NCBI GenBank assembly: GCA_905178155.1
Contig: CAJINV010000006.1
Coordinates: 2,954,658 to 3,018,657 of the forward strand
Length of the DNA: 64,000 nt
Direction of reading: 5' to 3'
DNA from: Amoebophrya sp. A120
Taxonomy: Eukaryota > Protista > Dinoflagellata
In this document: positions 14,544 through 48,000 of the stretch, one piece after another
How positions within the stretch are numbered: position 1 is the first letter of the stretch
Layout of the letters: every line of letters begins with the position of its first letter
The notes under the pieces: generated by a model
Seen by the model: the letters and a program-made list of their open reading frames with translations, nothing else
The model's database searches: none
What the model was told of the DNA's origin: nothing
Translations under genes and position numbers: made by a program

Positions 14544-17500
14544 ATGGCGACCAGCATGATGAGGAATTCATTATTTGCAAGCAGAGGCACCAGCGCAGCC
14601 GCAGCGTCGTCACTTCTCGGTGGCCCGGCCATGATTTTTTTCTTCTCTACCATTCTCTTCCTCGCACATCAACCGGTGACGGCTTTTATCAACTGCAAAA
14701 GTATCTTACTAGTAGCAATTGCAATACAAATTTTTAGCTCAGCATGACAACTGGAATTTGTCATGCTGTTTTACAATTGGCATGGAAATTTGTAATGCAT
14801 GATTGTGATTACTACGAGTACGAAATACTTTTGCACAGGATAGTTTTGTCCCGCTGGCAAGTGTCCTACCAAGATGTGGGCTCTGAGGACTACGTGCTCA
14901 CGATGTCGTGGTACCACGATTATCAACTGCAAAAATGTCTGGGTCTGGAAGATTCTAAACTTGTCATGCTAAATCTGAAGCATGCAAAAATCTGTGTTGC
15001 ATGATTGCCAAAAGTCGTCCAGTTTTCACCAAGTCGGGAGGGAGTTTCTCATGCAGGATAGGCATGAGAGAGATCGCACAGAATCTGTCATGCTAGGTCC
15101 TGCATTCCAGACCTCATGGGTCATGGAAAAGCAGCATGACAAATTGCGCATTCTTCCAGACCCAGACATTTTTACATTTGATAACGATCCCCAGCTCGCG
15201 ATTGTCGGGCGTGACCTAGCGAAAAATCCCGGCCTATGCTGTGCAACAGCGTCCCCATCCCAGCGTTGGGAAATCTGCAAGACAAATCAACAAACCTTGG
15301 CTGTTTCGCATGACAAGTTTTGGCTCGCAATGTCGCCGCGTTTAGCTAGTGCAGCAGCATCGCAAATCTAGGTCTAGCCTCTTATGCTGTTCCGAGCATC
15401 ACAAATTTGAATTTCAAAACAGCACTAGAAAATGCGTCCCATGGGGCTCCGCATGAGAGGCACTTGTAGCATGCAGATTTGCATGACAACTCTGGGGCGG
15501 GGACGTTTTTACACAGGATACGGTCAGCAGGACGGATCGACCTCGAAGACCAAAGCTGCTCTAGGGGTGTGCGACCCTCAGTCCACCGCAAAAGCGGCCT
15601 ATCAAATGTAAAAATGTCTGGGTCTGGAAACTTGTGATGCTGGGTGGCGTCTCATGGTGAGGCTACAAATGCTGGCTCAGCATGACAAGTTTCTGAGCTC
15701 CTAGGTGTTGCCTATTCTGCATGACAAACTGCGCTTCTGCATCTTCTTCTTCCACTGCGTGTCTCCACCTAGGGGTATCGGCAGAGGCTAAATCTGTTCT
15801 AACGCCCAGGTATTGGCAGAGGCTAAATCTGTTCTAACGCCGACCCGCCAGGAGTTAAATGGTACTACTACTACTACTACTACTACTACAACTGCATCTT
15901 CTTCTTCACAGAAAAACCAAGCTCTTGGGTAACTTGCATGACAGATTTAAGAGTCATGCCAGACAAGCATGACAAACATGAATTCTTCCAGACCCAGACA
16001 TTTTTACATTTGATACGGCCGACGGGAAGCTGTATTGGGCGCCCAGGATTTTTCCGCAGCCGGTTTCGGCTATGGATGTGTCAGGATTGCAATCGACAAA
16101 GTTGAAATAACTTGCAATGCATAAAATCGATACCAATTGGACCCACAGTTTCTAGTCGGTGCATGACAAATTTTATCCGTAGTACCGGAGGCCAGTTTGT
16201 GATGCTGTTTCGGGCAAAGGGGCTCCCCTCTGTCATGCTAATCAGCAGCCCAATTGTTCTCGACCCTTACCAGCACTACAAAAATCTGCTTCTCTTGCGT
16301 CCCCTGCAATAGAGGCAATTTCTGCGTTGCATTTCATGCATGGCAAACTATTTCATCCTGACACAACCATATCGGCTGAGGTGACGAGAAAAACCGGGAT
16401 TCACTTTGCTTCCGTCGACTGGCAACCCTGCGGACACAAGGACGTATCCTGAGTAAAAACGTACCCACACCAGAGTTAGGATGAGGGTTTTGCAACACAA
16501 ACCTACGAGTTTTGTGCGTCACGCATGACAAGTTCAACTCTGCAGTGTAGTGCAGGTTAGCAAGTGCAGCCGCATCACAAATCCAGCTGCTCCTCCTGTT
16601 CACAGCATCACAAATTCCAAAACACGATTGGAAATGGCTCTCATGGGGATGCGCATTATAAGTCTTCCTGTCTTTGCAAATCTGCATTACAACTCTGGTG
16701 TGGGTACGTTTTTACTCAGGATAGGACGTCGTGATTTGTCATGGCGAGTCCCACTACGACTTTCACCTCTATTACGTCTCGCAGGCGGAGTTGAATGGGT
16801 ATACGTGCAGCAATCCAAACCCGGTGTGCCCAGATTTGGATGACACCAACCAGAGAAACCACAAGTTTTACAAGCTCATGAAGGGCAACATTCCCTCCTT
16901 CGCGGACAAAGCCACCGGAGACACGCAACAGTTCAACTTCTGCGTGGACCCGACGAGCGCGATGCCGAACTCGGGCATCCTATCAAATGCAAATATCCCT
17001 GGATGTCTGGAAGGATGCCAACTTGTGATGCTGCCTTTGGATAATTCTACACGAAATCTGTATTGCGTGAAAAGCAGTAAAAGAGGTCCACTCTTTGCTA
17101 CGCGGAGAGGTGGGCATTTCTCATGCGGTATGGGCATCGGAAAGCCCTCGCAGAATCATCACAGACGTCGTGGGTCATGCAAAAGCTGCATGACAATAAA
17201 CTTCTGCACGACTCTTCCAGACATCCAAGGATATTTGCATTTGATACATCCACTACGGGGACAAATCGGAAACGCTTTCCGAGTATCCTGTGCAAAAGTA
17301 TCTGATACTCGTATTGCAATCATGCATTACAAATTTTTTTCTTGAGGTAAATCAGCATTACAAATTTTCTTTCTCATGCTGAGGAAATTTGTAATGCATT
17401 TATACGAGTACGATACTTTTGCCATTCATACCGAGTGGAGAAACCCGGTGACGGTGCTGGGGTCCTACGACTGCAAGTTGACCTATCAAATGCAAAAATG

Positions 17501-20500
17501 TCTGGGTCTGGAAGGTTGGAACTTGTCATGCTAAATCTAAATCATGCTAAAAACTGTGCTGCGTGATTGCTAAAAGTTGTCCACTTTTGACCTAATCGGG
17601 AGGGAGTTTCTCATGCAGGATAGGCATGAGAGAGATCGCACAGAATCTGTCATGCTATGTCCTACATACCAGACCTCATGGGCCATAGAAAACCTGCATG
17701 ACAAGACTGGCAATCTTCCAGACCCAGACATGTTTGCGTTGCATATGACCTTTTTCGAGCCCATGTTCTCCTGGAAGTGGGTACAGGGGAAGACGGGCAG
17801 CGGGGAGCTATGCATTGCAAAAATGTCTGGGTCTGGAAAAGTTGAACTTGTGTTGCATGTCTTGCATTCCTGAAAAATCTGTGTAGTTGCACAGCCAGCA
17901 AGAAAGGCGCTACTTTTTCGTCCTGCAAAAACGCAGTTTGTCATGCGTGCTACGCATCAGACGGCGTCAATCATGCTTGGCTGCACTTGAGAGCGCCAGT
18001 CTCATCCAAACTTTAGCATCACAAATTTCCAGACCCAGACATATTTGCATTTGATAGGAGTGGCCCAAATACGACAGCGGCCGGATCACATACGACGAGA
18101 AAAATTTCCGCCCTTTACCGGACTCCTGGTCGGTGGAAGTCGACCGGGTGGCCTGCGCGACAACCAACCCGAGCTCGTATCAAAAACAAAAATCCCCCCT
18201 GCCCATATCGAAAACGAGATTTGTCTTGCTGTATTTGAGTACACAAATCACATTTGCGTTGCAGTGGAGCACTGCACGCAGATTGCAAGCCTAGCTAGGG
18301 GCCTTTTGGTGTAGGCGCCTAGCATGGTAGACGGCTGCGCTGTAAACCTTACAGCGTCCTCACAAATCGCCTGCATGGCGTGACTGACAGCCTGGACTTG
18401 CCTCCTTGCAAGACAGACGCGATTTGTGGCCACAAATCTGCGTCGCAAATTTTCAGACGGATGCGCTTTCAATATGGGAAGGGGGATTTTTCCTTGCGAT
18501 AGCTCGGATTGCAAAATCACGGTGACCATCCGCGGCAAGCGGTGCGGCGCCAGCGGGTGCGGGGCCCTGCCGCAGGATATCTGCTGCAAATATGTCTGAG
18601 TCTGGAAGATTGCCGCGCTTGTCATGCAGGTTTTGCATGACCCATGAGGTCTGATTTGTAGGACATAGCCTGACAAATTCTGTGACAGTTCTATAATCAT
18701 GCCTATTTTACATGAGAAACTGCCTCTCGGTTAGGTCAAAAGTGGACAGCTTTTGGTAATCATGCCACTACTACACAGATTTTTGCATGTTCTTTCAGTG
18801 TTAGCATGACAAGTTGCAGAGTTTCAGACATCCAGGGATATTTGCAATGCATACAGGAGTGTGGCCTGCAACGGAACTGTATGAACTGCAAAAGTATCGT
18901 ACTCGTATAAATGCATGACGTCGCCTCGGTAGTGTCGTGGCCTCGGTACGCCACTACAATTTGGCGCACCGAGGCTAGAAGAAGTTTCTTTAGAACGCGC
19001 ATACAAAATGGCGCACCGAGGCCAAAAGTGCCAAGTTTTCGGAGTGGCCGCCTCGGTGCACCGAGGCCGACGGCCTCGGTACGCCAAATTGTATGCCGGA
19101 ACGAAGCAGCAGACGGGCGGAACACAATCACGAAAATGGAGAAAAGCGCTCCGGGCGCAGCGGTGCCAAGATTGGTTTTTTTGGGGTGAGACGGTGAGAC
19201 ACGTGAAACAAATTCGATGTTGTTGCCGTGCGTTTGGGGCAGTGCTCGTCGCGCGACGCCGCGAGCAGAAGCTCCCGCGGAAGGCAGGGGGCGACGCAGG
19301 CGCGGGCGTGTGCGAAGCGAAAAAACGCACGCGAAATCGCGAAGCATGCAAGCGCAGAAAAAATCAAAACGGAGAAACTTCTCCAGCCCGCACACAGTTG
19401 CGCTGCGATGCGTGTCTGTAAAATTAGGACTCTATAGTAAAAGAAGCTGGTCGCAAAAGTTTAGCGCAAGATAGTCCCGCGCGAAAAGGAAAAACAAAAA
19501 GCGCGGCAACAGATATAAAATAAAACAGAGCACAGCGATGAAAATGAGCAAAATCCTGAATAGGTACCGGCATGGCTGCAGGCGCGCTGGCATTATTTAG
19601 TAATTGAGTAAGCTGCGCGCGGCTATAGTTACACGGTGGAGCCACAGATTATAGATCGGATAATATTGCAGTGCGGATGACATAAAAAGGCGCGAACTAG
19701 ACGAATTGCGTTGCAGAGCGGAACGGGACAGACAAAAAAAACTACAGGCTGCGCTATGTACCACACAAAAAAAAAGTAAAATCTAGTAGAGAGAAGCGCA
19801 GCACTGAGGGGTGCGCGAGCATGGAGTGAGTTGCGTCCAGTGTGAGGCGGAGGTGGTGCAACGACGTGAATGAGCCGAAGCTCATCCAATGCGTCAGATT
19901 GGACCACCAACGCGCCCCCACCTGGGCGGAAACAAATGAAAGGCAAGTTTTTGCAGGAGAAAGTAATGATCTTGGTTCATAGTACTGGAACTTACAGAAA
20001 AAAGCAGAGCAAATAAAATCAGTTGCGGTGAGCGAAAGTCGCAAGCTGGTGCGCTCGACGTTCGCGACGCTGCACGCTACTCACACCGCGTCCAAGAGGG
20101 AATCGGGGTGGTTCGCCATCGTCGCTGCCATTTCGCGAAATTGGACGGGCAGGTCGGCGCGCGCCGCGACTTCGACGTGCCAGGCTCCGCACAGGACTCC
20201 CGGCAACCCGTTTGCCACCTTGGCTTTGCGCAGCTTCGTCCCCGTCAGGTGGACACACCAAACGGGATCGGCAACCGTTTTGGCGTAGTTGACGGTCGCG
20301 CGCAGCTTCGCGCGCTCGTCGCCAGCTTTGTTATACCACCAAATCTTCGCGCGCAGGCCGCCGGCACTGTACAGGACCGCGTACATGCCGCGCGAAATGA
20401 AGCGCACCGAGTCCGCAACCGCGCGGAACTGGCCCACGTCGCGGTAGTCGGCGTCGCCAAGGTCGCGAAACATGGCCGGCGGCTGCTGCAGCGGCGCTGC

Positions 20501-23500
20501 GATGTGCCAAGCTGCGGAGCAAGCGCTTGGAGACACGCGGGGGGGAGCGGGCGCAGCTTTCCCCGGCGGGCCGGGTGGGCCGATCGCGTCTTGCAGGACC
20601 TCGAGCACGCCAACAGCGGGCGGCGGCGCAGCGGCTGCCTTTTTGGCGGCGGGCTGTTTCGCTTTCGGCGGCGCGGCGAGTCGCCCGCCCGTCTTCGGCG
20701 GCGGCGTTTTAGACGGAAGCAGGGGCGCAAGCGTATCCGCCGCCGCCGGCAAGAGGGTCGCCGCGGCTGGCTTCAAGTTGTCCCGGTGCTGCCCACGATA
20801 AGTGCGCCCATCGATGTCAATGTCAGCAAGCTTGCCCGTGAGCGCCACCACTGTCCCGGGCCCGTGCCAACCTTTCCGCCCGAGCTGCGTATTTTTCAAA
20901 AATACGCTCTGCCCGATTTGCAGCTCCGGCGGCTCCGGCCGTTGCCCCCCCTGCTTGTTGAAAAACTGCTTGCGATTCTTGGTCGCGTTGGCTGCCGCCA
21001 CGTCCTTGGCCGCAGCAATGGACGCGGGGCGGTCCTGCTCAATGCGCTCCACCGCAGCAGCACGTTCGCCGAACAGCGATTCGGCGTCACTGCTGTCGGG
21101 CGACGGGGAAGAAGCGCTGTCGCCCGGACGCGGCGTCTCGAGCGCTGGCTCCTCGTCGGTCGAAAAATCGGCGTCCCAGGCGCCTTCGAACTCGGCCCGA
21201 AGAGCGGGCAAAGGGTCCGGCTGCGCGGAGCTGCTTGCAGCGATGGACAACGCGGCAGCTTGGTCCAACGTGCGCAGGTCAACGCCGTACAACAGGCGCG
21301 CCGCGCTTGTTTTATGGGGCGCTCAGGCGCGACGCGCTCAGCCGCGGCAGGTGTTGCCATGCAAGCACGCAGTGCGACGGAGGCAAAGTAACTGCGCCCC
21401 GCATGAAAAACGCGCGAGAGGCCACGCAGCAGGCAAATGGAAGCGAGGCCCGTGAGCAGTGCCAGCAGTTTACGTGCCTCGCAGGGGCTGTTCTTTCATT
21501 GCATGCAAAAGGGCGCCGCGGCTGAGCGCGTAACGGCTGGCGGCGCCATACTTGCCGCGGGCGCGGCGGGAAGCGGCTGCGTTCGTTGCCAGCTGCACCA
21601 GCGGAACATATTCCGGCCAGCGGCTCAGGTCCCGGCGCGCCAACTGGAGGGAAACGCGACCCACCATTTTTTCGGCCTGTCCGTTGGACATCGGGCGCCC
21701 CGGCGAGATCGTCGTGTGGCGAAACCCGAGAGCCTCCGCAAGGCGCTTGATGGCGGCAAATTCCGTCCCGGCATGAACACGAAAGCCGCAGCGCACGCGG
21801 CCCCCCGGTGATAGCAAAAGCCTGGCGCTTTTGCCGAGCCGGGGGCGAATGCGGCGCGGCTGTTCACTTGCTTAACCGTTGTCCGTGTGGTATTCCAGGC
21901 CAACCCCGAAAAAGCTCACCAGCTTGACCTGTCGTAAGGATCGCAAAAGCGTTTCGATTTGGAAAAGCAAAGGCGCGGCGCGCCTACTGAATGCAAAAGC
22001 AAAAGCGCAACGAAGAGGCACGGCACCAAAAAAAAAAAAGAGGGAAAAAACAAGAAGCATACCCAGGCACCGTGGACGCACGCCATCGACTTCCGCTCGA
22101 TGGGTTCCAGGAAGCAATAGCCCGTGACCCACGCCTATGGCACTCGCAAACGTTGCCCCCCCAGCTCTCTCGCGCATGAATTTGCAACGCAAGAACGGCG
22201 AGGCAAAGCGGAAACGGGTAGATTGCGCCCTTTGCGTTACAGAGGCAGCACAGATTTAGGCACTGTCTAGCCCTGCGGATAGTTGTCATGCCAGAAGCAG
22301 CTTAATCGCGGCGAATGCCAAAGCGCGTAGCCGCTGGGAAGGCAACAACTGCGAACGCCATAGCTCGACCGCCACAAAAAGGTATCGGCAACTTATGCAG
22401 GCGCCGAGACCGAAATAGGCAAAATCAAAAAAGAAAAATCTGGCGCCCCCCCTGGCGGGGTGCTGGACTCTCGCTTTTCGATTCTGACGCCCTCGGGCCT
22501 CGTTGGCCAAACTAGCCGTGGCGGCATGCTTGGGCGCGTCAGAATCGAAAGGGGCTCCGGAGGGGGTGACTTAGTTTCGTCCCTCCCCCCAAGGACTGCC
22601 AGAATTTTTTTTGCGATTTTGTCGATTTCGATCGTGGCCCCCATACGGTTTTCGACGAGCGGCATCTTTTTCAAGTCCAAAGCCCAGCGGTCGAGGGGCG
22701 CGGCCTGCTCGAAGGCGGCGCGCTGGAAACCGCTGCGGAAGGTCGCTGGCGCGCTGAAGGGCGCAGACCGCTGGCAGGCCAGGCAATCGGTTTTCGCTTT
22801 CGCCGCTGCTTCTTTCATCCCACGGAAATACACCTTCCAGCGCTGCAGGACAGATAACGTCGCCTCCCGCCCCCCGTGCGTCTCCTCATGCGCGCGGCGA
22901 GTGAGATCCGCGGCGCGCTCGTCGTCCCAAACGATTTCGTGCCATTGTCCCCGCAGGCTGTCATTGGCTTTGCCCAGGAAGCGCGTCCCCATGCGCACCA
23001 GAATTTTGCCGTCGCCCCACATGAAATCCTCTTCCCGCTGCTTCCACCAGCGGGCCGCGTAGCGCCCCAGCGGCGCCGCCAATGGTTCCCCCTGAAGCAG
23101 CGCGGCCATCTGGTGCTGCGTCACCGGAAACAGCTCCGCGGACGCCGGGTCTGCTGCTTCCAGCGGAAGTTCGGGCCCCGCGTCCTCGCCCAGGAACAAG
23201 AGGTCCGAAACTTTCGGTGAAGGCGGGCGCTTCGGGTTGCGCAGGTTGCGCTCGACCGCGACAACCGGCACGGCAGACGGGTCGAACATGAGGACGCGGC
23301 AGGTGAAGCCGTTCTTCGGATTGACCGAGCCGACGGCTCGGCCAAGTTGCCCGCTGCGATTCGCGTCCGGGTCGGTGTTGTTGTACTGGTCGTACAGTTC
23401 GGCCCGGGTTGCGTCCGCCTTCACCTGCGTGGCGAACGCGTGCCAAACCTGGTAATTCCCACCCCCAAACAGCGCGTCGGCGGCTCCCGCTCCGCTCGTT

Positions 23501-26500
23501 TGCGTGACCAAAAAGGCGCCCCAGACCTTTGCGCCGTCCACCAGGGTCGCGGCCGTGCGGCTGTAGTCGTCGACCAATATGCCACCAAAGACACACCCCC
23601 CCCTTACCGACTTCCCCCCCCCGCGAAGAGCACGAAGCCCGATGGACAACCGGCGAAAGGACCTTTACGGCCGAGAGGTAACATTGCCCGGATACCGATC
23701 GGGCGGAGAAGTTGCCGCGCACCTAATTCCGCTCGGGAATTCCGAAAACGCAGCGCGGCGGGGCGCAGCTGTGGGCCCGTGGCCGCCAGAAGTGGGGCGG
23801 CTCGCTTGGCGCATCGCGCGCGCGGCGCCCCTGCTTCACTGAATGAGCTTGGGCGGGCTGTCGCCCGCTTACGACCTGAGTCCGCCGAAATGGCGTCAGC
23901 TAAACTTCCAGAACCCGAAAAAAATACGAGAACAAGCAGCAAAAGCAAGAGAAGCTGCGAGGCAAATCAGCAATTTCCGACCGTAAACGGTGGCGGCCCC
24001 GCTCGAGCAGGGCCGCCGCCCTTGCATGCAGAACCTCAGCGCCTAGCTTACAGGGGGGGGGGCGGGGGGGGGGCGCGTCGCGCTTCTTAATGTCCACCAT
24101 CACGTACGGCGTGCCAAGCGGTTTCCAAAAACAGTGACTCCCCTGGGCGGCCGTTTCGTCGATGGCCCGCTGCCAGGAACCTTGGTCGCAGGCGGAAACC
24201 GTGGGCAGCTCGGTCCGCTGCCGCCGGCTCTTGTCGCGCGGGATGACCGACAGCTCCACGGGACCAACGAGCGCGCGGCAGATCTGGGCCATGTCCACAT
24301 CGAGCGCACGCACGTCGCCCGCACTGGGGTCCACAGGAGGCGCGCCGTCCGCGTTCTGCGCCGGGGTGCTGGCGGCTGCCTGCTGCGCCGCGGGTTGACC
24401 GAGCGGCCCACGAGAAGCTCCAACCAGAAGCGGCGCGGTTGTCGCGGCAGCGGTTGGCGCAGCTTTCGGCGGGACGGTAGGCGGCGCCCCGGTCGATGGA
24501 AGCGGCGCGGCCGTCGCGGTCGCCTTCGCTTTTTTCGCCGCAGGCCACATGGCCGACGAGTCGCCCGCGCCATCGTCGCCCGGTGGGAACTGCGGCGGCG
24601 GCGCGCCGTGTTGTGCGGCGATGCGGGCCAGGCAGGTGCGCTGCTTTTCCGACCAACGCGCGTAGCAAGGCAGCTCCTTCATGAAGGTGCGCTCCCAGTC
24701 CGTCAAGTTTCCCGCCCCAATGTCGTCGCGGACTTTGTCGACAGTGGATTTTTTCAAGCGGACCCCTTCCAGCTTCCGCTGAATGCGGTCCCACGTCGCC
24801 GCCCGCCTTTCCGTGTTGTCGACAAATTCGGGCGGCTTGTCCAACAGGTACTGCCGCTCGAATTTATCCAGGTACATGTGGAGCTCGGGATCGATCAGCT
24901 CGTCCAGGGCGGTGCGCGGCGGGGGGGCGTCCGAATCCCCCGACGAAGCCCGCGCCATGAAGTCACTGGCCCAGCTGGCTCCCGGCTGCGCGTCTCCCGG
25001 GGCACCCGCGCCCGGGTTGCCCCCCTGATCCTGTTGCCCGCTTTGCTGCATCGCTGTGCGTGCGTGCGCTGTTCGTTCGCTTTCCCTGCTGCTTTCGTTC
25101 GCTGCGTGCTGTCCCTGCGGGCGGTTGCTCTGCTCGGTTTCTTGCTGCTAGTTGTCTCCTGCTTGTGCTGCTCGCGCCAAGTTTTTTTGTGCGTTTTCCC
25201 CTTTAAGCGTTTGCGCTAAGTGTTTCGAGTTTGTTTGCGAAAGTTTTGCGACTAAATCCTTAACCTAGTGAAATCCCAAGCGGATACGTAGCGCCCTTAT
25301 AAAGAGTGGGTGAGCTAAGTTACCGGGTCGGGGTGTCATCGCTGTGGCATGGGGGGGATCGAGGCAAAACCTTCGCGAGATGAAACGAAAACTCCAACAC
25401 GGGAAACTAGCGCGAAAGCGAAGCCCGCAGGACGAAGGCAGCGCACAGCGCCTGCTGCACACAATGCAAAAAGAGGAGGCCAACGAGCACCGAGCGGCCC
25501 CGCCCGTGGCAGCGGACCGCGTGCCAAACATGGCGAAAACGACCGACCACGGGGCCCGCGCGGACTTTCGCGGAGTTGCCCCTTCGTTTGTGTCTTTGTA
25601 CGAATACCGAACGACTTCGATTTTTCTTCGCACGATTTACCGACAAAGAGCAGCGGGGCCTCAAAGTTTTTTTTGGTTTGCACGATACACCGAGCCAAAG
25701 CGTTCGCACGACAGGCCGAGCAGCTGAGCCAGGCACGGAAGCGAGGGAAGCGGCTCGCGCCATAGTCTAGAGGGAACTTACGCGCCAAAAGCTTGCTTGC
25801 ACATCAGACAGACAGGCCCGGGCGAAGTCCCGCCCTAATTGCAGACTAAAAACTTGCTAAATTGAACCGGCGCCCGGGCCCCGGCAGGCTTTGGGGTTTT
25901 CCGTGTTTTCAAGGCCCAGCGCAGCCGCGCAGCCGGCTCTTCTCTGGGTTTTCAGCTTTGGGGGCTTGGCCGCATTTTCGGCGGCCTTCCGGACGGTGGG
26001 TATGTCGCCCGTCTTGCGCGTATTTTGTGGCACGGGCCTGCCGGTTTGTCTCTCTGGGGTCCGGCTCGGAAATTCCGGCCTTCGGCGGGGTAGGGTTCCG
26101 GAGTCCGCTAAATTAGTCCGCTAATCGGGTCGCAAATTTTCAGAAAAGTGCCCAGAACGCAGTTGCTAATTTGCATTTCTAATAGTCAGCTAAAATTTTG
26201 GGCCTTTTCCGGAAGGGGTCTGCTAACCCCACTCCTAATAGTCATCTAATTGGTTCGGGCGTTGTGTTTTGGGTCTGCTAACCTGTAGCTAATTGCGCAA
26301 GGCAAGAAAATCCAATGGGATTTCCCTGTTGTTCGAGCAGGGTGTGAACAGCAGGGAAATCGCATTGGTTTTTGGCTTTGCTGACAAATTAGCAGACGCA
26401 TTCGCGCCCCGGGGGGGGCTTAATTAGCAGACAAATTAGCAGACGCATTAGCAGACACCAAAAAAAATTAGCACCCAATTAAAGACCCAATTAGCAGGGG

Positions 26501-29500
26501 CTTTCTTGGAATCGTCTGTGGCGTTTAGCAGACTCCCGCGAGGGGGTCGGGGGGGTAAAATTAGCAGACAAATTAGCACGGTTATCTCCGAGGTTGGTTT
26601 CCGTGCGGACATATTTGGGTTACCTTGGCCGGGCGCTTGGGCGCTCGTATTTGTTCGCGAGAACCGGCTTCCGGTAGTTGTCTGGCTTTGTTATCTGAAT
26701 TGCGTTAGAGGGCAGGTCGTCGCGTCCTCCTTCGTCCTTGTTGGCAGGCTTCTTTCTGTTGTGCCTCCGGGCATGGTTTCTGGCTTCGGGGGATTTGCAA
26801 ATTAGCAACTTTTTAGAGTCCGATTAAAGTTATTAGGTCGCCCGGGCCTGTCTGCCTGATGCACAAGCGCGCGGCCCCCGAAGCAACTAGAAAAAGAAAG
26901 AAACCCGCCGCCCCCCCTCGCCCCTCGCCTTCTCGGGGGGGGGGGACCGGGGGCCCATCGGCTAACTCGCGAGGCCATGGACGCGCGCGGGCCTTGGGGG
27001 GCAGAAAAACAAAACCCGCACCCTGGCTCGCGTCCGAGGGCAAAGTAAAAAACGCAGGAGGCGCAGCCGTCTGCGCCACCTGGGGGGGGCGCGCGATGGG
27101 ACGTCTTTGCGCGCCGCCTCGGTGCGCCAAAATGTATTGTGAAGGCGCGCCGCTACAATACAAATTTTGTAGGTGGGCAAAAAGACATACTTTCGCGGGC
27201 TCGGTGCTGCCATACGTTACAAACCGCACCGGGCTCGGTACTGCTTTTTGGCGGGTTTTCTCAATGAAAAAAGCGCGAAAATTGTAACGCCCCACATACG
27301 ATTTGGCGCACCGAGTCGTATGTGCGTACCTAGGCCACGTCATGCATTACAAATTTCCTCAGCATGAGAGATGAAATTTGTAATGCGGATTTACCTTAAG
27401 TAAAAGATTTGTAATGCAAGACTTGCATTTATACGAGTGCGATACTTTTGCACAGGATAAACTGCATCAACAATCAATTCATGGGCAGAATTATCAAATG
27501 CAAACACGTCTGGGTCTGGGAGATTTGTCATGCTAGTCTGGCATGACTCTGAACTCTGTATTGCGTGGCCGCAAAGACGAGCCCCCCTTGCCTGTTATGC
27601 AAAAGCGCAGTTATTTCTCATGCGGAGTACGCAATTCAGAACCACGTCCACGGGAAAACTTGTCATGCTTTGCAGCGCATTACAGTTTCCTCACTTTATT
27701 TCCTTCCTCGCATCACAAGTTTCCAGACATCCATGGATATTTGCATTCGATAAGAATGCCAGCGGTGGTTCCGAGCCCCGTGCCGGCGCCGCAAAGCACT
27801 GCTGCAGGCGTACCGGCTCCCGCACCGGCATCCAGTGCCAGTAGTAGAACAACGCCAACAACGACCAATTACGTCCAATCGAGCAGTCTATCCTGTGCAA
27901 AAGTATCGTACTCGTACAAATGCAAGTCTTGCATTACAAATCTTGTTCCCAAGGCAAATCTGCATTACAAATTTTATCTCTCATGCTAAGGAAATTTGTA
28001 ATGCATTTATACGAGTACGTGTACGATATTTTTGCAATGCATACAGTCCGTCAGCCAGCAACTACAACAGCAGTCCTTCGACTGCAAGCATCCTGGCAAA
28101 CGCGGCGAGTAGTCCGAGCCCGTCGCCGTCAGTTGCCTCCTCCTCGCCGTCTCCAGCGGGAGTCAGCCCCACGCCGCTATTCTGAGTAAAAACGTCCCCA
28201 TCCCAGAGTTGTCATCCAATTCTGCATGCCAAAAAAGTTTCTCATGCGGAGCCCTATGAGGAGCGTTTTCTCCTCGTGTTTTGGAATTTGTGGTACTAGA
28301 ATCAGAACGCTATGCTAGATCCGTCATGCTTCTGAACTAGCAAAACAGGATTACACTACGAGGACAAACTTGTCATGCCAGACAACCAAGGCTGGCTGAT
28401 TTGTCTAGCACATTTCCCATCTTGACTCTGGTGTGGGGACGCTTTTAATCAGGATAGCCTCTTCCCGCACCGGCACCCCTCACGCCGGAAACCATCACCC
28501 AAAACGCCGTACAAAAGCAGTTTGAGGTATGGGAGTGTCAGAATCGAAATCGACAAAGTCGAAATAAAATCTGCAATGCATGTAAACGTAAGACACGCAA
28601 GGCCTGTTTTGGGGACCAGGCAAATGAGACCGATTGCAATCCTCTTTAGGGGAGGGCGATGTGCTGCCAGAGTAGCATGGCAGGAGCAGTCTTCTTTGCC
28701 GAAACAGCATGACAGACTGGATTTTAGCGCTCCCAAAATTTGTCATGCGCTACTTGCAAACTGGGGCTCCAACCAGTATCGATTTTATGCATCACAAATC
28801 ATTTCGATTTTGCTGATTTCGATCCTGACAGTTCCATATGAGGGGATCCAACGGGTGCAGGTCTTGGGATTGAACGGCTACATCATTCCCTCGCACTTTG
28901 TATCAAATGTAAAAATGTCTGGGTCTGGAAGAATGCACCTTGTGATGCTGAATTTGGATTCCAAAAAAATCTGTATTGCATGAGCAGCAAAGGGAATGCA
29001 ATTTTTGCTACGCGGAGAGGGCATTTGTCGTGTGGAATAGGCATCGCGAAGCCTTCAAAAAGTCTGTGATGCTAGGGCATGCATCACAGACATCGTGGCC
29101 AATGCAAAACATGCATGACAAGTCTCAGAATCTTCCAGACCCAGACATTTTTACATTTGATACTTTGAGGAGGCCATGCGGGGGGGTTTTAGCCGGTACC
29201 TGGGGATCAACGTGTCGCAGATTACCATCAAGTATGGATTGCAAAAATGTCTGGGTCTGGAAGAATTCAAGACTTGTCATGCCAATTTTAGATGACCCAT
29301 GACGCCTGTAATGCATATCCTAGCATCACAGATTTTTACGATGCTTCCTGATGCCTATTCCGCATGAGAGACGCCGTCTCCGTGTAGCACAAACTGGACT
29401 CCTCTTGCTGGTCATGCAATACAGATTTTTTTAGAATGCAGAGACAGCATCACAAGTTGCAACCTTCCAGACCCAGACATTTTTGCATTTGATATCAAGC

Positions 29501-31331
29501 AGATGAGCGTGGTCGGGGACACGAGAAACTATCCTGTGCGAACGTATCGTACTCGTATAAATATGCAAGTCTTGCATCACAATTCACAAATCTTGCTCTT
29601 CAGGTAAATCCGCATTACAAATTTTATTTCTCATGCTGAGGAAATTTGTAATGCAAATGCATTTATACGAGTGCGATACTTTTGCAATGCATAGAAACTC
29701 GTTGGTGATGAATTCTGCACGGCAAAGGCTTTTACTCGACGACCAGATGTTGGAGGACAGAGGAGAACAAGGCGAACCTGACCGGCATATTAGCAAATCT
29801 GATGTCATGCTAGTAGAAAACAAGAACCTCCAGCAAACAAACTCCCTGCTCACCGAAGTTATTTCATCGTCCAACGCGCGCAGGCTACAGACGCGGAGTC
29901 AAACCTTATCGTACGAAAAAGTTTGTTTCGCTGCAAGCATTTTGCAAAAACTTTTGCATCTTCACAAGCGTGCTGTTTATGTTCTACATCACAGAGAAAA
30001 TTTGAATTTGCCGTACGAGATTTTTCCTAAGGGAAAACACAGCTGGAAATTAATCCATCGTCTTTCATTTCGTGTAGCAAGACAAACACTGCTCAGATAC
30101 ATTGTCCTCTGCATAATTACAATTTTACAGTGAAACAGTTTTTTCTTGCGATAAACCTCGATCGACGTGCACTATGTCATCGAAATGGTGGTTCTCAACT
30201 CGTCGGCGGCGCAAGCGACGTCTACCGATTCGCAGGTGCAGAAGGTGTATTCATTGCAAAATTGTCTGGGTCTGGAAACTTGTGATGCAACTTGCATTAT
30301 GCAAGGAAGGGAATGGTGGCGTCACTATGTATTATGCGCGGGCTAGCATGACAAGTTTTTTCGTGGTTCTGTGTTGCGTATCCCGTATGGAAAACTGCGT
30401 TTTTGCACGACACGGAGAAAAAGCTCTTTGCGGCCACGCAATACAGAGTTTAGAGTCATGCCAGACTAGCATGCCAAACCTCGCAATCTCCCAGACCCAG
30501 ACATATTTGCACTTGATAAGGTCGAATCGCTGACAAACGGCGCGGTAAACGCGAACACGAGTGTATCGTAAGGAAAAATGTCCCCTCCCCAGATTAAAAA
30601 CGTACTTCTCAGAAAATTTGTAATGCTGATTCGTGACCACAAATCTTTTTGTCTTGCAAGAAGGCAATTCTACAGTCTCCGCCGCATTATGCGGACGGTT
30701 TGTGATGCTGCTTGGGCTACAGCGTAGACATTTGCGATGCTAAGCGTCCACGTCAGAAGCCCTGTACTCAGGCGCGGCATATGCCTGCAGTCCTCTACTG
30801 CAAGACAGCTCGGATTTGTGTACGGAAATCCAGCATAAGACAGCTTCGTTTTGATACTGGGAGGGAAAGCTTTTTACTTTTGATAGAATGACGCGGAGCT
30901 GTTGCGAGCGTCACTCGACTATGCAAAGAAAAAACTGTTTCACTGTGATGATTTTGCAAGATCTGCATCACAAGTTTGCTACACATGAGACTAAAAACCT
31001 GTCATGCGCGTTTAATACCAAGGGAAAACACGGTTGAAACTCCAATGCTCTATGCAGGTGTAGCAAGACAAATACGTTGTGTGCTCCATTCTATGCATCA
31101 CAAGTTTACAGGGAAGCAGGTTTTTCGTGCGATATCGACATGGAGATCTCTACTAGAGTGCCCGGTCTCACCGTATCATCCGCCACGGCGATGCAGCCTG
31201 CGAGAGGGGATTTGTCCAGCAACGCAGTGACGCGGTATGGAGCTTCTACAAGCGGCTCGTTACTCCTGTCGCATTTCGTTGCAGGCATCGGGTTCTGGTT
31301 CGGGATGTTTGGGTTGCTGGTGTTGGGGTGA
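14544..31331 (+). CDS. Secreted/surface protein with DUF5602 (TTHB210-like) domain, S/T/P-rich linker and hydrophobic C-terminus (TM or GPI signal); 24 introners
   Basis: Spliced product has an N-terminal hydrophobic segment (MIFFFSTILFLAHQPVTA), then HFASVDWQPCGHKDVVICHGESHYDFHLYY, AMPNSGIHYGDK and TVLGSYDCKLTFFEPMFSW, which match my recollection of DUF5602 motifs (WNPxGH, PHFDFHFY, GSYDGxxxFxEPM). It ends FWFGMFGLLVLG*. Introners: 14687-14842, 14921-15183, 15235-15520, 15600-16015, 16071-16371, 16445-16723, 16981-17246, 17284-17430, 17484-17745, 17809-18056, 18178-18501, 18578-18853, 18880-27459, 27492-27752, 27889-28043, 28178-28456, 28528-28838, 28901-29162, 29233-29494, 29530-29693, 29907-30153, 30248-30518, 30564-30885, 30920-31134. 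Confidence 0.85.
15753..15891 (+). mobile_element. 5'-truncated non-LTR retroelement (LINE/SINE) 3' end inside an introner
   Basis: 16-bp direct repeat CTGCATCTTCTTCTTC at 15737-52 and 15892-907, a (TAC)n tail, and an internal tandem copy of GGTAT[C/T]GGCAGAGGCTAAATCTGTTCTAACGCC. Confidence 0.7.
16445..16723. mobile_element. Introner family C (TATCCTGAGTAAAAACGT.CCCAC.CCAGAGT), ~280 bp
   Basis: TSD GGACG. Other copies start at 11820, 12150, 15235, 28178, 31639, 37263, 46733, 48375, 49923, 57585. Confidence 0.95.
20081..23649 (-). CDS. Retroviral-type (rve) DDE integrase/transposase with HHCC zinc finger and GPY/F-type C-terminal module; multi-exon
   Basis: AHEETHGGREAT...YFRGMK...CLACQR (HHCC); PLDRWALD (D1 ~22675); RYLFVAVE; WVTGYCFLEPIERKS; FFGVGLEYHTDNG|TEF (D2 ~21881); SPGRPMSNGQAEK (E ~21671, D-33-E); GKSAARLLYG; LQIGQSVFLK...WHGPGTV...HRDNLKP. 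Interruptions: introners 22394-22645, 22136-22362, 21313-21550; GT-AG intron 21929-22062; GT..CG intron 21769-21876. The true 5' end is uncertain. Confidence 0.88.
23900..25051 (-). CDS. Upstream ORF of the Ginger-like element (unknown function; possibly the first exon of the integrase gene)
   Basis: 383-aa ORF with a protein-like core (LDELIDPELHMYLDKFERQYLLDKP...WERTFMKELP). A GTAAGC donor-like site near 24050 suggests splicing to downstream exons. Confidence 0.55.
   Translation of the reverse strand: MQQSGQQDQGGNPGAGAPGDAQPGASWASDFMARASSGDSDAPPPRTALDELIDPELHMYLDKFERQYLLDKPPEFVDNTERRAATWDRIQRKLEGVRLKKSTVDKVRDDIGAGNLTDWERTFMKELPCYARWSEKQRTCLARIAAQHGAPPPQFPPGDDGAGDSSAMWPAAKKAKATATAAPLPSTGAPPTVPPKAAPTAAATTAPLLVGASRGPLGQPAAQQAAASTPAQNADGAPPVDPSAGDVRALDVDMAQICRALVGPVELSVIPRDKSRRQRTELPTVSACDQGSWQRAIDETAAQGSHCFWKPLGTPYVMVDIKKRDAPPPRPPPCKLGAEVLHARAAALLERGRHRLRSEIADLPRSFSCFCCLFSYFFRVLEV
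25795..26868. mobile_element. ~1.07-kb foldback/MITE-like segment inside the Ginger-like element
   Basis: Inverted ends GCTTGCACATCAGACAGACAGGCCCGGGCGA / TCGCCCGGGCCTGTCTGCCTGATGCACAAGC. Interior has many GCTAAT/ATTAGCAGAC repeats. No clear TSD. Confidence 0.6.
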
Positions 31332-37666: not shown

Positions 37667-38915
37667 CGTGATCTCGTTTACAGAATGCAGATTATCTGCA
37701 GATGAAATATTTTGTTTTCCTGGGAGGGGGAGCTGAGGCGCCAGAAAGTAAAAAAGAAGATGTGGTGGCACATTTTTGCCATGAAAAAGCCGGCGCTTGA
37801 TCATGTTGAGGCAGCAAGAGGGATAGCAATTCAAAATCCAGACAGTAGTGCCTGCTTGCCGTTCAGAATATTACAGACTGTAAATTGCAACTTCTTCGAG
37901 ATGCCCTACTGTTCTTTCAGGATCTCGGCCAGCATGATCTTCAGGGCCAGCAATTTCATCGGATTGATGTCGGACTTTCCGGTCGCCGTGCTGATGCAGA
38001 TGCTCGCCCAGATGTCAGTCAAGGCGCTGGCCGGATGGTGCGACCAGAACTGCGTCGCCGTCTAGAAGACCAACGATCTGCAGCTGTGTTGGCATCATCT
38101 AGGCCATCGGACCCCAAGCGCTGAGCGCCGGGGCAATGCGATGCCTCCCTAAAAAACCGGCTGCGTTGCTTGCTTGATAAAAATGCAAGCAGGGACAGGT
38201 CGCCCGAGTAGATAGGAAGTCGCGGATCCAGATGCTGATGTACTAGATGCTGACTTTCCGCCAGCTCCCAAGAAAAGTAGTGCTTTGGTTGTACCGCCAA
38301 AAAAAGAACCCGTCAGAGAATCTGGCGCGTGTGTGTTTTTCTATTCGATAAAGAAGGAAACGCCGTTGTCGACCTTGGCCCAAAGCGGCAAAAAATGGGC
38401 CCAAGCAGGAGCCAAAAACTTGGCCCAAGGAGCCGGAAGATGGGTCCAGAAAAACAAGGGGTTGGCTACGGCAATTGGTGCAGCTGCAACCGTTGGCTTT
38501 GCTGGGATTGCAGCCGCGCGGCGGCGGCAGCGGTATTTGCATACTTGTAACGAGACAGGCTCAGCATCACACTCACGCAGTTGGTTCGTACCAGCCACAG
38601 CGATCTTACATATATGGTCCAAGTTCATTGCTTTTTGATTTCGCATCGAAGTCCTTCGCTTTCGTTTCTCCCTGTTTGGTTTGCGGCCTAGAGACGCCTG
38701 ACTGTATTTAGCAATCGCGGCAAATGGTGAAGAAGGCAGAAACGAAGAAGAAGCCCTACCGGCGGCTCACTTGGAAGACGCAAATGAATCGGAGGACTCT
38801 CGCAAGCATTGGCGCTTTGGCTTTTTCCTGTCTGACCTCCGATCGCCTGCCCTTCGTAGAAGTGCTTCCGCTGGCTTCGAGTTAGGAGTCGGCAATCAGC
38901 TGTACTTTGCCAGCC

Positions 38916-40150
38916 CTGTGACAAGAACTGCGGGGCGCCGGAGTGCCAGTTGATGGAGAAAAAAGAAATCGCCGGCATAGTTGCAAAAAGGCGCGCCGGT
39001 CGCAGGAGGGCGGCCGGGCGCTCTTGGGCATGGCAAGAAGCCAGGGCGGGCCGATCAAGAGTAGCATGGGCCAGCGCGACGTTACAGCGCATGCTGCCGG
39101 CAATTGGCCTAGCTGCTTTTCCATCCGCAGCAGAAGCATGACCACCAGCGCGGGAAAAATGCTTAGAATAGAACCCAAATGATGTCCATGTCCACTGGCG
39201 CTCTTTGTTTGTAGTTGTATGGGCCGCGCTGGGGGGTATGTTGAGTCTTTCGCCTTTTCGTCGCCACTTGGGCAATTATGTGTCCTGGATTTCTGCGGCT
39301 TGCGAAACTATGAAGCCCAACTTTGATGGAAATAAATACAGGAAGCGGCGAGCAGCTGCGCGAGCTCGGGAAGCCGGAGCTGCGGGCGCCGAGCGGTATC
39401 TTTGTTTCGCGTTTATCTCGTTCATCTTGTCAACACCTTGCTTCCGCTCTAGATGCGAAGCAACCTCATTGCTTTTGTAAAGCGTTTCTGTTGCCAGTTG
39501 ATGGCCCTTCACGTACCTGCAAGAAGGCCCGGCTTTCGTGGGGAGGTAGCGATAGAGATTTTTGGCAAGAGCAGCCTGGCCCCACGCGCGTCAGCGCATT
39601 CTGGCAACCTGCGGCGGTTGTATCCGCATCAGAAGCATAACTATGGATAGTAGACACTTAGGGAAAAGTGTGAGGCCATATGTCAGCGACGCTTTCGCTT
39701 GGCTTTTTCTACCCTGTTCAATGTCGTGCCTCGCTGGCGGTCCCTGGGAAGAGCCGCCTGCATCTTCCTAGGATTATCTGCCTATGTTGCATGCCCCTAG
39801 GAAAATCCTCCGAAGCACAGTAGGATACGCTCTGCGTCATTCTTTCTCGAAGTTTGGCTCTCACTTCTCCGGGGCCCGGCCCTCTGACAAGAACTGGGGG
39901 GCGGCGGAGACGGAGCGTTAGTGGGGGACAGAAGAAATCGCCGGCGTAGTTTTAGTAGAAAAATAAAAAGGCGCGCCAGAGCCAGTCGCAGGAGGCCGCG
40001 CGCCCTTGGGCATGCATGGGCAGAAGCCAGGGCGGGGCAATCAAGAGCAAGATGCGTGGGCCAGTGCGCAACAGCGCGCGCCACTGCTGGCAATCACCCT
40101 AGCCATTTTTCTATCCGCGGCAGAAGCATGACCCCCAGCGCGAAGGGATA
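38916..40150. repeat. Degenerate ~250-bp direct repeats
   Basis: 38916-39160 and 39882-40150 share TGACAAGAACTG..AGAAATCGCCGGC..GAAGCCAGGGCGGG..CAGAAGCATGACC. A weaker copy lies near 39490-39650. Confidence 0.7.
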
Positions 40151-40870
40151 TGAAGTGTAAACGATGCGTATCCCCGCTGGTGTTCTTTGTCTGTTGTATT
40201 AATTTGTTGGGCCTGGAAGCAATATTGGGCGGCAGTGTGTGGAGTGGTCCGGGCAGCCTGTGCACCTTATCGCCGCGCGAGGATGCTGCGTTCAGATCCT
40301 GTTCTTTTTCTGTCTTAGTTTTGCTGCGGGCGCGGGCGGCGCGCATGCAGAGCCAGCCAGCGGCGCAGGGATAATACGCACAGGGGAATAGAAGTAAAGT
40401 GGATAAATAGCCGCCATCGGCGGGGCAGCTAGGGTGAAGAGGAAGTGATGGAAAGTCAGTGGGCACGCTCTGTTGTCTGCGAAGCTTAGTCCCAGTCTAA
40501 ATCCATAGCCCCAAGCCCTACTGCCTGTTCTTTTTATACTTTTGGTTGCTCACCAAGCTAGCCACAGTCTGCGGCGTGTCTTAGCGTGCCCCGGAGCGTA
40601 ATTTTTTAGCGAATCCTGCACACCCAGCAAAACTGCCGAAAGACATAGATAGGCGCCAGGGAGGATGGTTTCCGTAAAATCCGCTTCCGGGGTGCCGCCG
40701 GGCTGCAGAAGTTCCCTTCATTCCAGGGGCCGCGCGGTGTTTCGCTTTAGAGGCCAGACCCGCAGCCGGCCTCCAGGCTTTTCGACAGCCACGGCGGATC
40801 CGAAAGAAAATAGGAGCTAGCAAGTGCAAAAAGTGTTACTTCTAGAGGCTGCGCCCTTTTTCGGTTCAGA

Positions 40871-45027: not shown

Positions 45028-48000
45028 ATGTACGACCGCATTTCGCAAATGGACCTGGAGCAGCAGCAGTCTCCACCCCCGTCTAAAACCGTTGCGGGTA
45101 AACCTGCCCTGTTCGGCTCCGCGCAGCAACAGCAGCAGTTACCAATGGGAAACATCCCTGGACGTCTGGAAGGTTGGAACTTGTGATGCTAACTTTGGAG
45201 TCTAAAAAAATCTGTGTTGCATGACGAACAGCAAAAGGAGTGCACTTTGTGGTACGCGGGGACGAGGGCATTTGTCATGCGGGATAGGCAACATCAGGGA
45301 GCCTTCTAAAAATCTGTGATGCTTCTACGTCATGCATTACAGGCGGCATGGGTCAGGGAAAATCTGCATTACAAGTCTTGCACCCTTCCAGACCCAGACA
45401 TATTTGCAGTTCATAGCAGTACTACAACAATTACAACGAACGGGGGACGAGGACCATGTCAAGCCTAGGGGCCGATTATCAAATGTAAAAATGTCTGGGT
45501 CTGGAAGCTTGTGATGCTGGACGGCGTCTCATGTTGAGGCCACAAGTGCTGGCTCAGCATGACAAGTTTCTGAGCTTCTAGGTGTTGCCTATTCTGCATG
45601 ACAAACTGCGTTTCTGCATCGCAGAAAAGTGGGGCTCTTGGGTAACGTGCATGACAGATTTAAGAGTCATGCCAGACAAGCATGACAAACCTGCATTCTT
45701 CCACCAGACCCAGACATTTTTGCAATCCATACCGATATGGAGAATGTGACGAATCTGCAAACGCCACTACAGGATTTTTCCAAACACCAGTATCCAGGAA
45801 AAAAACTGTGCGAGTGTAAGTTTCTTGGAGGAATAGCATGACACAGATTCATCTCTGTCATGCGCAGCTAGTACGTGAAACTGAAAGCACGTACGAAAGT
45901 TGCTTCTGATGCATGTGCAGCATGACAAGTGTAACAGTTTTGTATTTTCTGCAACACAAAGTTACACTAACGCAGTTTTTTTCTTGGATAACCAGCAGCC
46001 CTCGTCCACCTCGTCGCCCTACAACTACCAGCCGGCGAGCCGGTCTCCGGAGCAAATTTTACAAGAAAAGCTCCGATTAGGCTACCACGACCGCCACGCG
46101 CCGGTGAGCGGCGTGAAGAAAAATTTAGATAAGCACGCCGAGCACTACAAGGGCACCGATTTAACCGTCAGTCACTTGGACGTGTATCAAGTGCAAAAAT
46201 TTCTGGGTCTGGAAGAATGCAAGTTTGTCATGCTTGTCTGGCATGACTGTCAAATCTGTGATGCATGAGCAGGAAAAGGGCGTCTTGGCTGTGGTCATGC
46301 AAAAACGCAGCTCGTCATGCGAAAAACGAAACACGCACCAGCACAAAAAACGCGTCATGCTGGGTCCGCCCACCATTCACAAATGAGCATCACAAGTTTC
46401 GTCCAGACCCAGGCATATTTGCAATCCATAACGTGAAAAAGAAGTCAAAGGGGCGAAGCTCGCTGGGAATGGACATGGGGAGTAAACTCTACACCTCCAT
46501 ATGCATTGCAAAAGTATCTTCGTACTCGCATAAATGCATCACAAATTTCCTCGGCATGAGAAATATATTTTGTAATGCGGATTTAGCCTAAGAAAAAGAT
46601 TTGTAATGCATGATTGCAATACGAGTAGCAGATACTTTTGCACAGGATACTCCAATTGGAATCACGATTGGGACGACAAAACGATTGCGCGGAACAAGGC
46701 CATGATGGGACTGGAAAACCAGCAAAGTAGCATATCCTGTGTAATATTAACGTCCCCACCTCCCCATTGTCAAGATGGGAATTCTGCAACACAGATCCAG
46801 AAGTTTTGGGAGTCACGCATGACAAGTTTTTATCTGTACGGTAATCGCGGGATAGCAAGGACAACCGCATCACAAAGCCATCCTGGTATCCTGTTTACAG
46901 CATCAGAAATTGCATAAATGCGATTGATGGAAATGCGTCTCATGGGGACGCGCATTACAAGTTTTCCTGTGATTGTAATTCTGCATGACAACTCTGGGGC
47001 GGGGACGTTTTTACACAGGATATAGCAATCTGGCGCTAGACCCCAACAGCAAGTTTGACGACTACGCGACCTTCCGCACCGGCCCGGGCTTCATGTCCCT
47101 GGCGGTCTATGAATTGCAAAAGTATCGTATTCGTAGTATTGCAATACAAATTAGCTCAGCATGACAAATGGAATTTCTCATGCTGAGTCAGCTTGAAACA
47201 GAAATTTGTCTTGCATGACTGCGATGAGTACGAGTACGATACTTTTGCACAGGATACGGTCCCCGCCTCGGCAAATGGCCTCCGACGGCAGTTCGACGGG
47301 CACAAAAACGAGTCCACGATGCAAGACCTGCTGCACGACGGCTATGCAAGAGAAAAACTGCGTAAGTGCAAATTTGTGTTGCAGAACATGCAACAGAGTC
47401 ATTACACCTGTCATGCCAGACAGCCACGAAGCCCTCTTTTCATGTGTGTTTTGCCTTACAAGCCACGCATGACAGCAGGTTTTCTCTGTCATGTAGAGCA
47501 AATTTGTGATGCGGTTCCTCAAAGACAGTTACACTTACACACTTTTTTTTTTTGGATAACGGCCACCACGCCCACATTGATTTTGGCACCGGTAACACGA
47601 TGGAAGAAGAGGAGCAACGGCAGCAGATGGTATCAAATGCAAAAGTGTCTGGGTCTGGAAGGATGCAGATTTTTGTCATGCTGTTTTTCCATGACCCGGA
47701 AGGTCTGGCAAGCAAGGTCTAGCATTACAGGTTTTGAGAAGCTGCGTCGATGCCTAATCCGCATGACAAATCGCATATTTTCTCGGTAATACAATGGGGC
47801 AACTGTTGCTGTCTATGCATGAGTAGAGATTTTTGTGTGTTGTGAGATGCGCATCACAAGTCCCGTCTTTTCAGACTCAGACACTTTTACACTTGATAGA
47901 TGGCGGGCTACGTCAATTTCGGCCTGCAGGCGACCAAGGGCTACCGATCCAGCTCTCCCAGCTCCAAGCAGGACCAAATGCGCAGCAAGTACGCAGGTTC

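Follow-up and report, generated by a model that had tools for sequence, protein, structure and literature searches.

We analysed a window of 64,000 nucleotides of the dinoflagellate Amoebophrya sp. A120 (contig CAJINV010000006.1, forward strand, positions 2,954,658 to 3,018,657), which is crowded with introners: inverted-repeat units of 145-420 bp with TAT…ATA ends, flanked by 5-bp direct repeats. One of them, 149 bp long, harbours an 8.4-kb element that has terminal inverted repeats (TIRs) and a gene for a retroviral/Gypsy-type integrase. Judging from the sequence, we are fairly confident that this element is likely to move as a cut-and-paste DNA transposon, in the manner of Ginger elements, and is likely spliced out together with the introner. 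Positions below are those of the window.

The interrupted introner belongs to family B, spans 18880-27459 and measures 149 bp without the insert and one TGCA. A pattern search for this family gave 15 matches, corresponding to 14 distinct copies (one was found on both strands); the 5-bp duplication was perfect in 12 of the matches and showed one mismatch in three. The insert of 8,427 bp (18916-27342) follows base 36 of the introner. Empty copies read AAATGCATTAC at this point, and the filled copy reads AAATGCA/TGACG…CGTCA/TGCATTAC (slashes at the junctions). The junctions fit TGAC…GTCA with TGCA duplicated and, equally, GACG…CGTC with ATGCAT duplicated (4 versus 6 bp). We would favour the 4-bp duplication, because TG…CA is an integrase-type terminus (PMC2836005). 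An earlier note on this DNA had described a family-B introner of about 150 bp with AACTG intact on both sides, split by an 8.4-kb insert with TG..CA inverted ends and a TGCA duplication; all of this was recovered. When both ends were folded together, 28 contiguous introner pairs were predicted (18887-18914 with 27425-27452), running on into the stem of the element's TIRs. The sequence of the right junction, ACGTCATGCATTACA, is also present at 45322-45342 inside another introner, a match that is probably due to chance.

The TIRs match at 14 of 16 bases and diverge beyond this point (4 of 200,000 random end pairs were equally good). Both termini read TGACG, as the earlier remark that they are TGAC and not TGT implies. 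A 14-bp subterminal motif had eight matches in the window, none of them farther than 230 bp from one of the two ends. Only 0.77 matches were expected, and none of 100 shuffled sequences had as many as eight; the motif was absent from all introners of the window. A YxDD, protease, gag-CCHC or pPolB motif was found in none of the six frames of the element. No direct repeat of the size of a long terminal repeat (LTR) was present, the longest exact one being 20 bp, and none of 13 frames matched a Pfam family of LTR retrotransposons (protease, reverse transcriptase (RT), ribonuclease H (RNase H)), in agreement with the previous statement that neither LTR nor RT is seen. Towards the right end lies a nested non-coding TIR element of 1,056 bp with internal AATTAGCAGAC repeats, for which three contigs with other flanks were found at each end.

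On the minus strand, removal of six predicted introns would leave one frame that runs for 1,172 codons from the ATG at 25051 to its only stop, at 20081. The introns comprise four hairpin units (C, D, F and G), one GT-AG intron (E) and a less certain one (A), and the removal rule was that of the host introners (unit plus 5 nt). The frame stayed open in 12 of 243 offset combinations, and the combination with 5 nt throughout is among these. GC content at third codon positions (GC3) was 0.77-0.81 in the coding blocks; a further exon beyond the stop (GC3 0.48) was considered and dropped. The first coding block gave no significant match in Pfam, PHROGs or NCBIfam. Introns C, D, F and G folded better than shuffled sequences (z -3.0 to -7.3). 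The flanks of the nested introns matched at 0, 2, 2, 3 and 1 of 5 bases (1-3 of 5 in C, D, F and G), compared to perfect duplications in 15 of 16 host introners. Because C and D have relatives elsewhere, and because all four combine such folds with decayed flanks, we read C, D, F and G as old introners retained as introns. Their retention in the integrase gene argues for movement without reverse transcription. The nesting that had been proposed (a gene containing an introner, containing a transposon, containing introners) was confirmed.

The spliced model contains a zinc finger (H562-x3-H-x30-C-x2-C) and a putative catalytic triad (D633, D690 and E724; D(56)D(33)E), so that the HHCC and D-D-33-E motifs named in the earlier note hold. 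The HHCC part matched Pfam Integrase_H2C2 (E 4.8e-5) and the core piece matched rve_3 (E 0.004), both below the curated cut-offs. The GPY/F-like tail was upheld only in part: WHGPG and HRDNLKP fit the GPY/F pattern by eye alone, and the tail had no match in Pfam or PDB. A search of PDB with profile A1 gave only foamy-virus integrase, at E about 1e-4 (five of six rows). Among 1.84 billion representatives, the only match was P0001 (28% over 275 columns, E 2e-24), which is collinear with the spliced model and shares D(33)E. The 1,172-amino-acid protein, whose assembly the earlier note had proposed, was built and aligned to P0001. This homologue (P0001-P0003) is intron-free, reads HHCC-D(62)D(33)E and lies on contigs of 3.8-7.6 kb. 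No homologue was found with P0002; profile A1, which is poorly aligned in its middle, found only P0001 among longer proteins, and no related loci were found in metagenome or viral contigs, by protein or by subterminal motif. Single-sequence structure predictions were unusable (predicted local distance difference test 42.8 and 34.7), and no hit with E up to 0.001 came out of the fold search. The C-terminal 135 amino acids (20084-20488, minus strand) scored 0.91-0.95, below the recognition threshold, to Atlas clusters that include kinase-clan families, and resemble a kinase N-lobe by eye, which is a lead only; Atlas gave nothing for the N-terminal block. At the YPYY position before the zinc finger, inspected by eye, P and F are present and both outer aromatics are L. 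The features are collected in Table 1.

Table 1. Features of the split introner, the element and its predicted transposase gene, by window position.
Feature	Position	Strand	Observation
Introner 5-bp target duplication AACTG, left copy	18875..18879	+	
Family-B introner, left arm, 36 bp, ending in duplicated TGCA (18912-18915)	18880..18915	+	31/36 bases inverted-identical to 27424-27459
Integrase-type TIR element, 8,427 bp, TGAC…GTCA	18916..27342	-	Interior contigs 19304-24063 and 24092-25838, 0 differences
Left end: 16-bp TIR and subterminal 14-bp repeats	18916..19096	.	Contig depth 209.6 vs 20-23 inside
Predicted last exon: end of integrase core, SH3/GPY-F-like tail (WHGPG, about 20750-20950), Pro/Ala linker, C-terminal 135 amino acids, stop 20081	20081..21308	-	GC3 0.77
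Nested intron G, introner-like TATG…CATA hairpin with erased duplication	21313..21550	-	28/35 inverted identity; z -3.0
Predicted exon with catalytic E	21552..21768	-	rve_3 E 0.0013; IS481 model matched at E 2e-4, well short of the cut-off
Nested intron F, decayed hairpin	21773..21875	-	Ends chosen to fit the frame; z -3.5
Predicted exon with second catalytic D (HTDNG)	21877..21928	-	Gapless alignment to P0001
Predicted GT-AG intron E, no hairpin	21929..22062	-	z -0.7
Nested intron D, TATG…CATA	22136..22362	-	Relatives elsewhere in genome; z -3.1; depth up to 299 at 22262-22278
Nested intron C	22394..22645	-	Relatives among host introners (28528-28838, about 54420-54715); fold z -7.3
Predicted exon: N-terminal part, HHCC zinc finger and first catalytic D	22647..23573	-	
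Predicted intron A (TAAG…CATA), least certain	23578..24050	-	Joins first frame to integrase exon in frame; z 0.2, no hairpin signal
First coding block, 333 amino acids	24052..25051	-	GC3 0.80, like integrase exons
Nested non-coding TIR element, 1,056 bp, TCAG…CTGA, TGCACA (6 bp) duplicated	25804..26859	.	Depth 66-100
Right end: subterminal repeats and 16-bp TIR	27114..27342	.	Contig depth 233.4
Second TGCA and rest of family-B introner	27343..27459	+	91% identity over 124 bp to copy at 27883-28006
Introner duplication AACTG, right copy	27460..27464	+	

A script found 16 introners at 15600-29693, with a perfect 5-bp duplication in 15. When 12 of them were cut out, each with 5 nt, the frame was open as far as one unit missed by the script. 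One host exon is 100% identical to P0004, a protein of Amoebophrya sp. A120, and the reconstructed frame equals P0004 by eye, save one residue at the mismatched duplication, which places the splice junction there after the fourth base or earlier. A variant in which an introner has GT-AG sites and the frame is altered was dropped; removal of unit plus 5 nt reproduces P0004. P0004 and its homologue P0005 are in frame across the insertion site, and the P0004 gene model takes 8,585 nt, that is, the 8.6-kb composite, as one intron. The DUF5602 label previously given to this gene could not be confirmed: neither the host protein nor four homologues matched it in Pfam (E up to 1), and the likeness is one of motifs. 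The anatomy of the introners fits the non-canonical introners of A120 described in PMC7789003. The TAT…ATA ends and the 5-bp duplication, common to all 16 introners of several families, suggest one class of mobilising enzyme.

According to the mechanism we propose, the 1,172-amino-acid protein would bind the TG…CA ends and the subterminal repeats, and would join both ends to the target with a 4-bp stagger. The element probably moved without an RNA step, because the nested introner-derived introns have erased 5-bp duplications while the element's own duplication is perfect. Insertion would have hit the introner's terminal stem at its inner tip; the stem is predicted to survive, lengthened by the element's TIRs. 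Several points weigh against this interpretation. The TIRs are far shorter than those of Ginger, and all Pfam scores are under the curated cut-offs. The junctions of the transposase gene and the splicing of the 8.6-kb intron are predicted, P0004 being itself a gene model, and two parts of the transposase gene model are unverified: intron A and a G-run at 24064-24091 that contigs do not bridge. No second full-length copy of at least 80% likeness was found in DNA run X1, the single run used, which may be the window's own source. In RNA runs X5 and X6 there was no 99% match, and host exons were uncovered too, which makes these runs uninformative on expression.

Contig depth, which reflects copy number only roughly, was analysed in run X1. 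Contigs of the element's interior had a depth of 20-23 with 0 differences, and those of the host gene 27-30, which puts the coding interior at single-copy depth. The terminal contigs reached 210 and 233, so the ends are about ten-fold deeper, which corresponds to roughly ten copies. Two joints, 19126>26994 (depth 81) and 19332>26936 (depth 37.6), indicate deleted forms of at least 560 bp and at least 824 bp respectively. These internally deleted copies retain both ends and may be non-autonomous derivatives of the 8.4-kb element. Eight of 68 contigs run over the element ends with introner flank. Among the best-supported six of 28 loose-end rows, the loose ends at 18910 and 27348 correspond to the introner flanks, reversed and at the opposite end, and no cluster (two or more) of unrelated flanks was found at either end. 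Quite probably, then, more than one copy is present at the same introner site, the junction contigs giving indirect signs of at least one further insertion there, apparently in reverse orientation. Such copies could have arisen by targeting or by travel inside the introner. The earlier note mentions neither the deleted forms, nor the nested 1,056-bp element, nor these hints that one introner site was used more than once.

Targeting, a possibility that we place somewhat short of probable, would mean that the integrase picks the AATGCATT position of family-B introners, a harmless and self-renewing landing site, in either orientation. The introner flanks of the eight contigs fit this, as does the lack of two or more unrelated flanks at the ends in the same six rows, compared to three per end for the nested 1.06-kb element. 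The homologous introner site accounts for only 6 of the 65 ATGCAT and 6 of the 641 TGCA sites of the window; as it is so small a share of the hexamers, a plain preference for palindromes is not an easy explanation. The reversed flanks hold 24 and 19 letters including six matched bases, that is, 31-7 and 31-12, where 7 and 12 are the first two positions of difference between the TIRs. A graph of 31-letter words would branch there if two different ends met one flank, while a lone junction would give about 29-30. However, the word length of 31 comes from the tool text, the evidence from loose ends is confined to the best six of 28 rows, and the second insertion is deduced from junctions and was not read as sequence. 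Moreover, both loose ends are letter-identical to the locus's own reversed flanks, so a mirror placement through the TIRs is possible.

Alternatively, there may have been a single insertion, after which the composite and its deleted forms were copied by the introner machinery or by segmental duplication. This is the less likely course, even if it explains the shared introner flanks and the absence of unrelated ones without any specificity, and the introner arms (31/36) and the 5-bp duplication are intact, which speaks in its favour. It does not by itself give the reversed flanks, and the 8.6-kb cargo is more than 50 times the size of an introner. With targeting, a wider view of the element can be put forward tentatively: a new lineage of integrase-type DNA transposons that would be a site-specific parasite of introners, inserting at the family-B stem tip in either orientation and extending the stem with its TIRs, with the host splicing out 8.6 kb and the element's own gene colonised by introners of the same sort. 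A mobile intron that keeps multiplying would thus serve it as a refuge.

Descent from an LTR retrotransposon whose RT and LTRs have been lost, the first coding block being its Gag, is very improbable. The Gypsy-type HHCC, the SH3/GPY-F-like tail and the TG…CA ends would suit such an origin, and LTR elements are reported from A120 (PMC7789003); against it, the ends are inverted, not direct, and carry subterminal repeats, protease, CCHC and YxDD motifs are absent, the integrase gene retains old introns, and deleted copies retain both ends. The least probable proposal is that this integrase is the missing enzyme and mobilises the TAT…ATA introners in trans as well: no putative transposase was found in A120 by PMC7789003, PMC12130899 ties a TA-ended family with a 5-bp target-site duplication to LTR integrases, and introns conceal the present gene, which was not in the searched protein libraries, but its ends are TGAC and not TAT, its duplication is 4 or 6 bp and not 5, and its subterminal motif is in none of the window's introners.

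Among known systems, the element appears Ginger-like in its likely mode of action, and its sequence does not support membership of Ginger1 or Ginger2; the earlier assignment to the Ginger class therefore stands for an integrase-type TIR DNA transposon with Ginger-like workings, and not for the TIRs, terminus, target or OTU/Ulp1 domain of these two groups. Ginger1 has TIRs of about 40-270 bp and Ginger2 of 45-297 bp, with a TGTNR terminus; the target is CCGG/CCGT in Ginger1 and RTATAY in Ginger2, the TDD duplication is 5 bp, a C-terminal OTU or Ulp1 domain is present in all Ginger1 families but one, and Ginger2 is without GPY/F (PMC2836005). Like Ginger1 (PMC2836005), the element encodes one transposase of the integrase type, with HHCC, DDE and a tail that resembles GPY/F by eye; it also shares TG…CA ends and, if these are read as the termini, a 4-bp duplication, as well as introns in the transposase gene and a low copy number. 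Unlike Ginger1, it has a 16-bp TIR, a TGACG end, an AT-richer TGCA target, D(33)E, introner-derived introns, and 1,172 amino acids, the first 560 and last 135 of which lie outside the assigned domains. Of the Ginger1 hallmarks, HHCC and the integrase-type DDE were found, and the TIR length, TGTNR, CCGG/CCGT and OTU/Ulp1 were not (the last exon matched no Pfam family, and hence no OTU, Ulp1 or PHD). With Ginger2/TDD the element shares its occurrence in protists, a duplication (4 bp if the ends are TG…CA) centred in a 6-bp palindrome (RTATAY there, ATGCAT here) and non-autonomous derivatives (PMC2836005). However, Ginger2 has longer TIRs and TGTNR ends, which the element lacks, and is without the GPY/F-like tail recognised here by eye; ATGCAT fits the symmetry of RTATAY but not its core. 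The element thus seems closer to Ginger1 in its tail and closer to Ginger2 in its palindromic target.

The claim that such elements were not described in this lineage was overstated, since A120 introner family 38 consists of TIR elements with homology to LTR integrases, called "reminiscent" of Ginger (PMC12130899). Family 38 is unlike the present element: its five copies measure 808-810 bp, with TIRs of 49-53 bp, TA/TA ends and a 5-bp target-site duplication, and it is itself an intron, whereas the present element is ten times longer, ends in TG…CA, has a catalytic triad that appears complete and is itself nested in an introner. IS3EU/GingerRoot and IS481EU share the integrase-related DDE core, and the IS481 model gave a weak match, but these groups are without HHCC and have TA…TA ends with a 6-bp target-site duplication, or TNT…AYA ends (PMC6839031, PMC10045372). 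Together with Polinton they were excluded by HHCC, and also by the TG…CA ends (AG…CT in Polinton) and the lack of a pPolB motif; the LTRs, protease, RT and RNase H of an LTR retrotransposon were not found. Dada is a precedent for a DDE transposon with a fixed site in a multicopy sequence, although its enzyme is related to MuDR/hAT and its targets are small nuclear RNA and transfer RNA genes (PMC3706591), while the putative target here is a spliced mobile element. Searches of the literature outside subscription journals and Repbase gave no report of the 8.4-kb element or of an introner-targeting transposon.

What is new is a full-length transposase concealed by introners, together with possible targeting of introners. 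The case against a transposase-driven spread of introners in A120 rested on no transposase being found there (PMC7789003). A complete-looking DDE gene with six predicted introns, itself inside a host intron, indicates that such genes can escape detection; therefore, the mobiliser of the TAT…ATA introners may be searchable once introners are stripped, and the finding of a hidden full-length transposase is relevant to the identity of this mobiliser. If targeting is true, a DNA transposon would here use a second mobile element, one that is spliced, as its fixed target. PMC7789003 reports that U1 small nuclear RNA was undetected in A120, and a non-canonical intron of 8.6 kb with an intact terminal stem offers a natural test of hairpin-guided splicing. 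Finally, a divergent alveolate D(33)E integrase is added to the question of the origin of LTR elements and Ginger.

The same window holds a second large TIR element inside an introner, so nesting of this kind is not special in the A120 genome. It is GC-rich and measures 3,118 bp (60551-63668, in an introner at about 60291-63720); its inverted ends match at 39 of 42 bp and start with TATAGCGGCGGC, and its longest open frame is 374 amino acids. By eye, two GC-rich stretches that resemble each other (38900-39250 and 39880-40200, about 980 bp apart) lie in a GC-rich block at 37-42 kb and are possibly a decayed repeat element.

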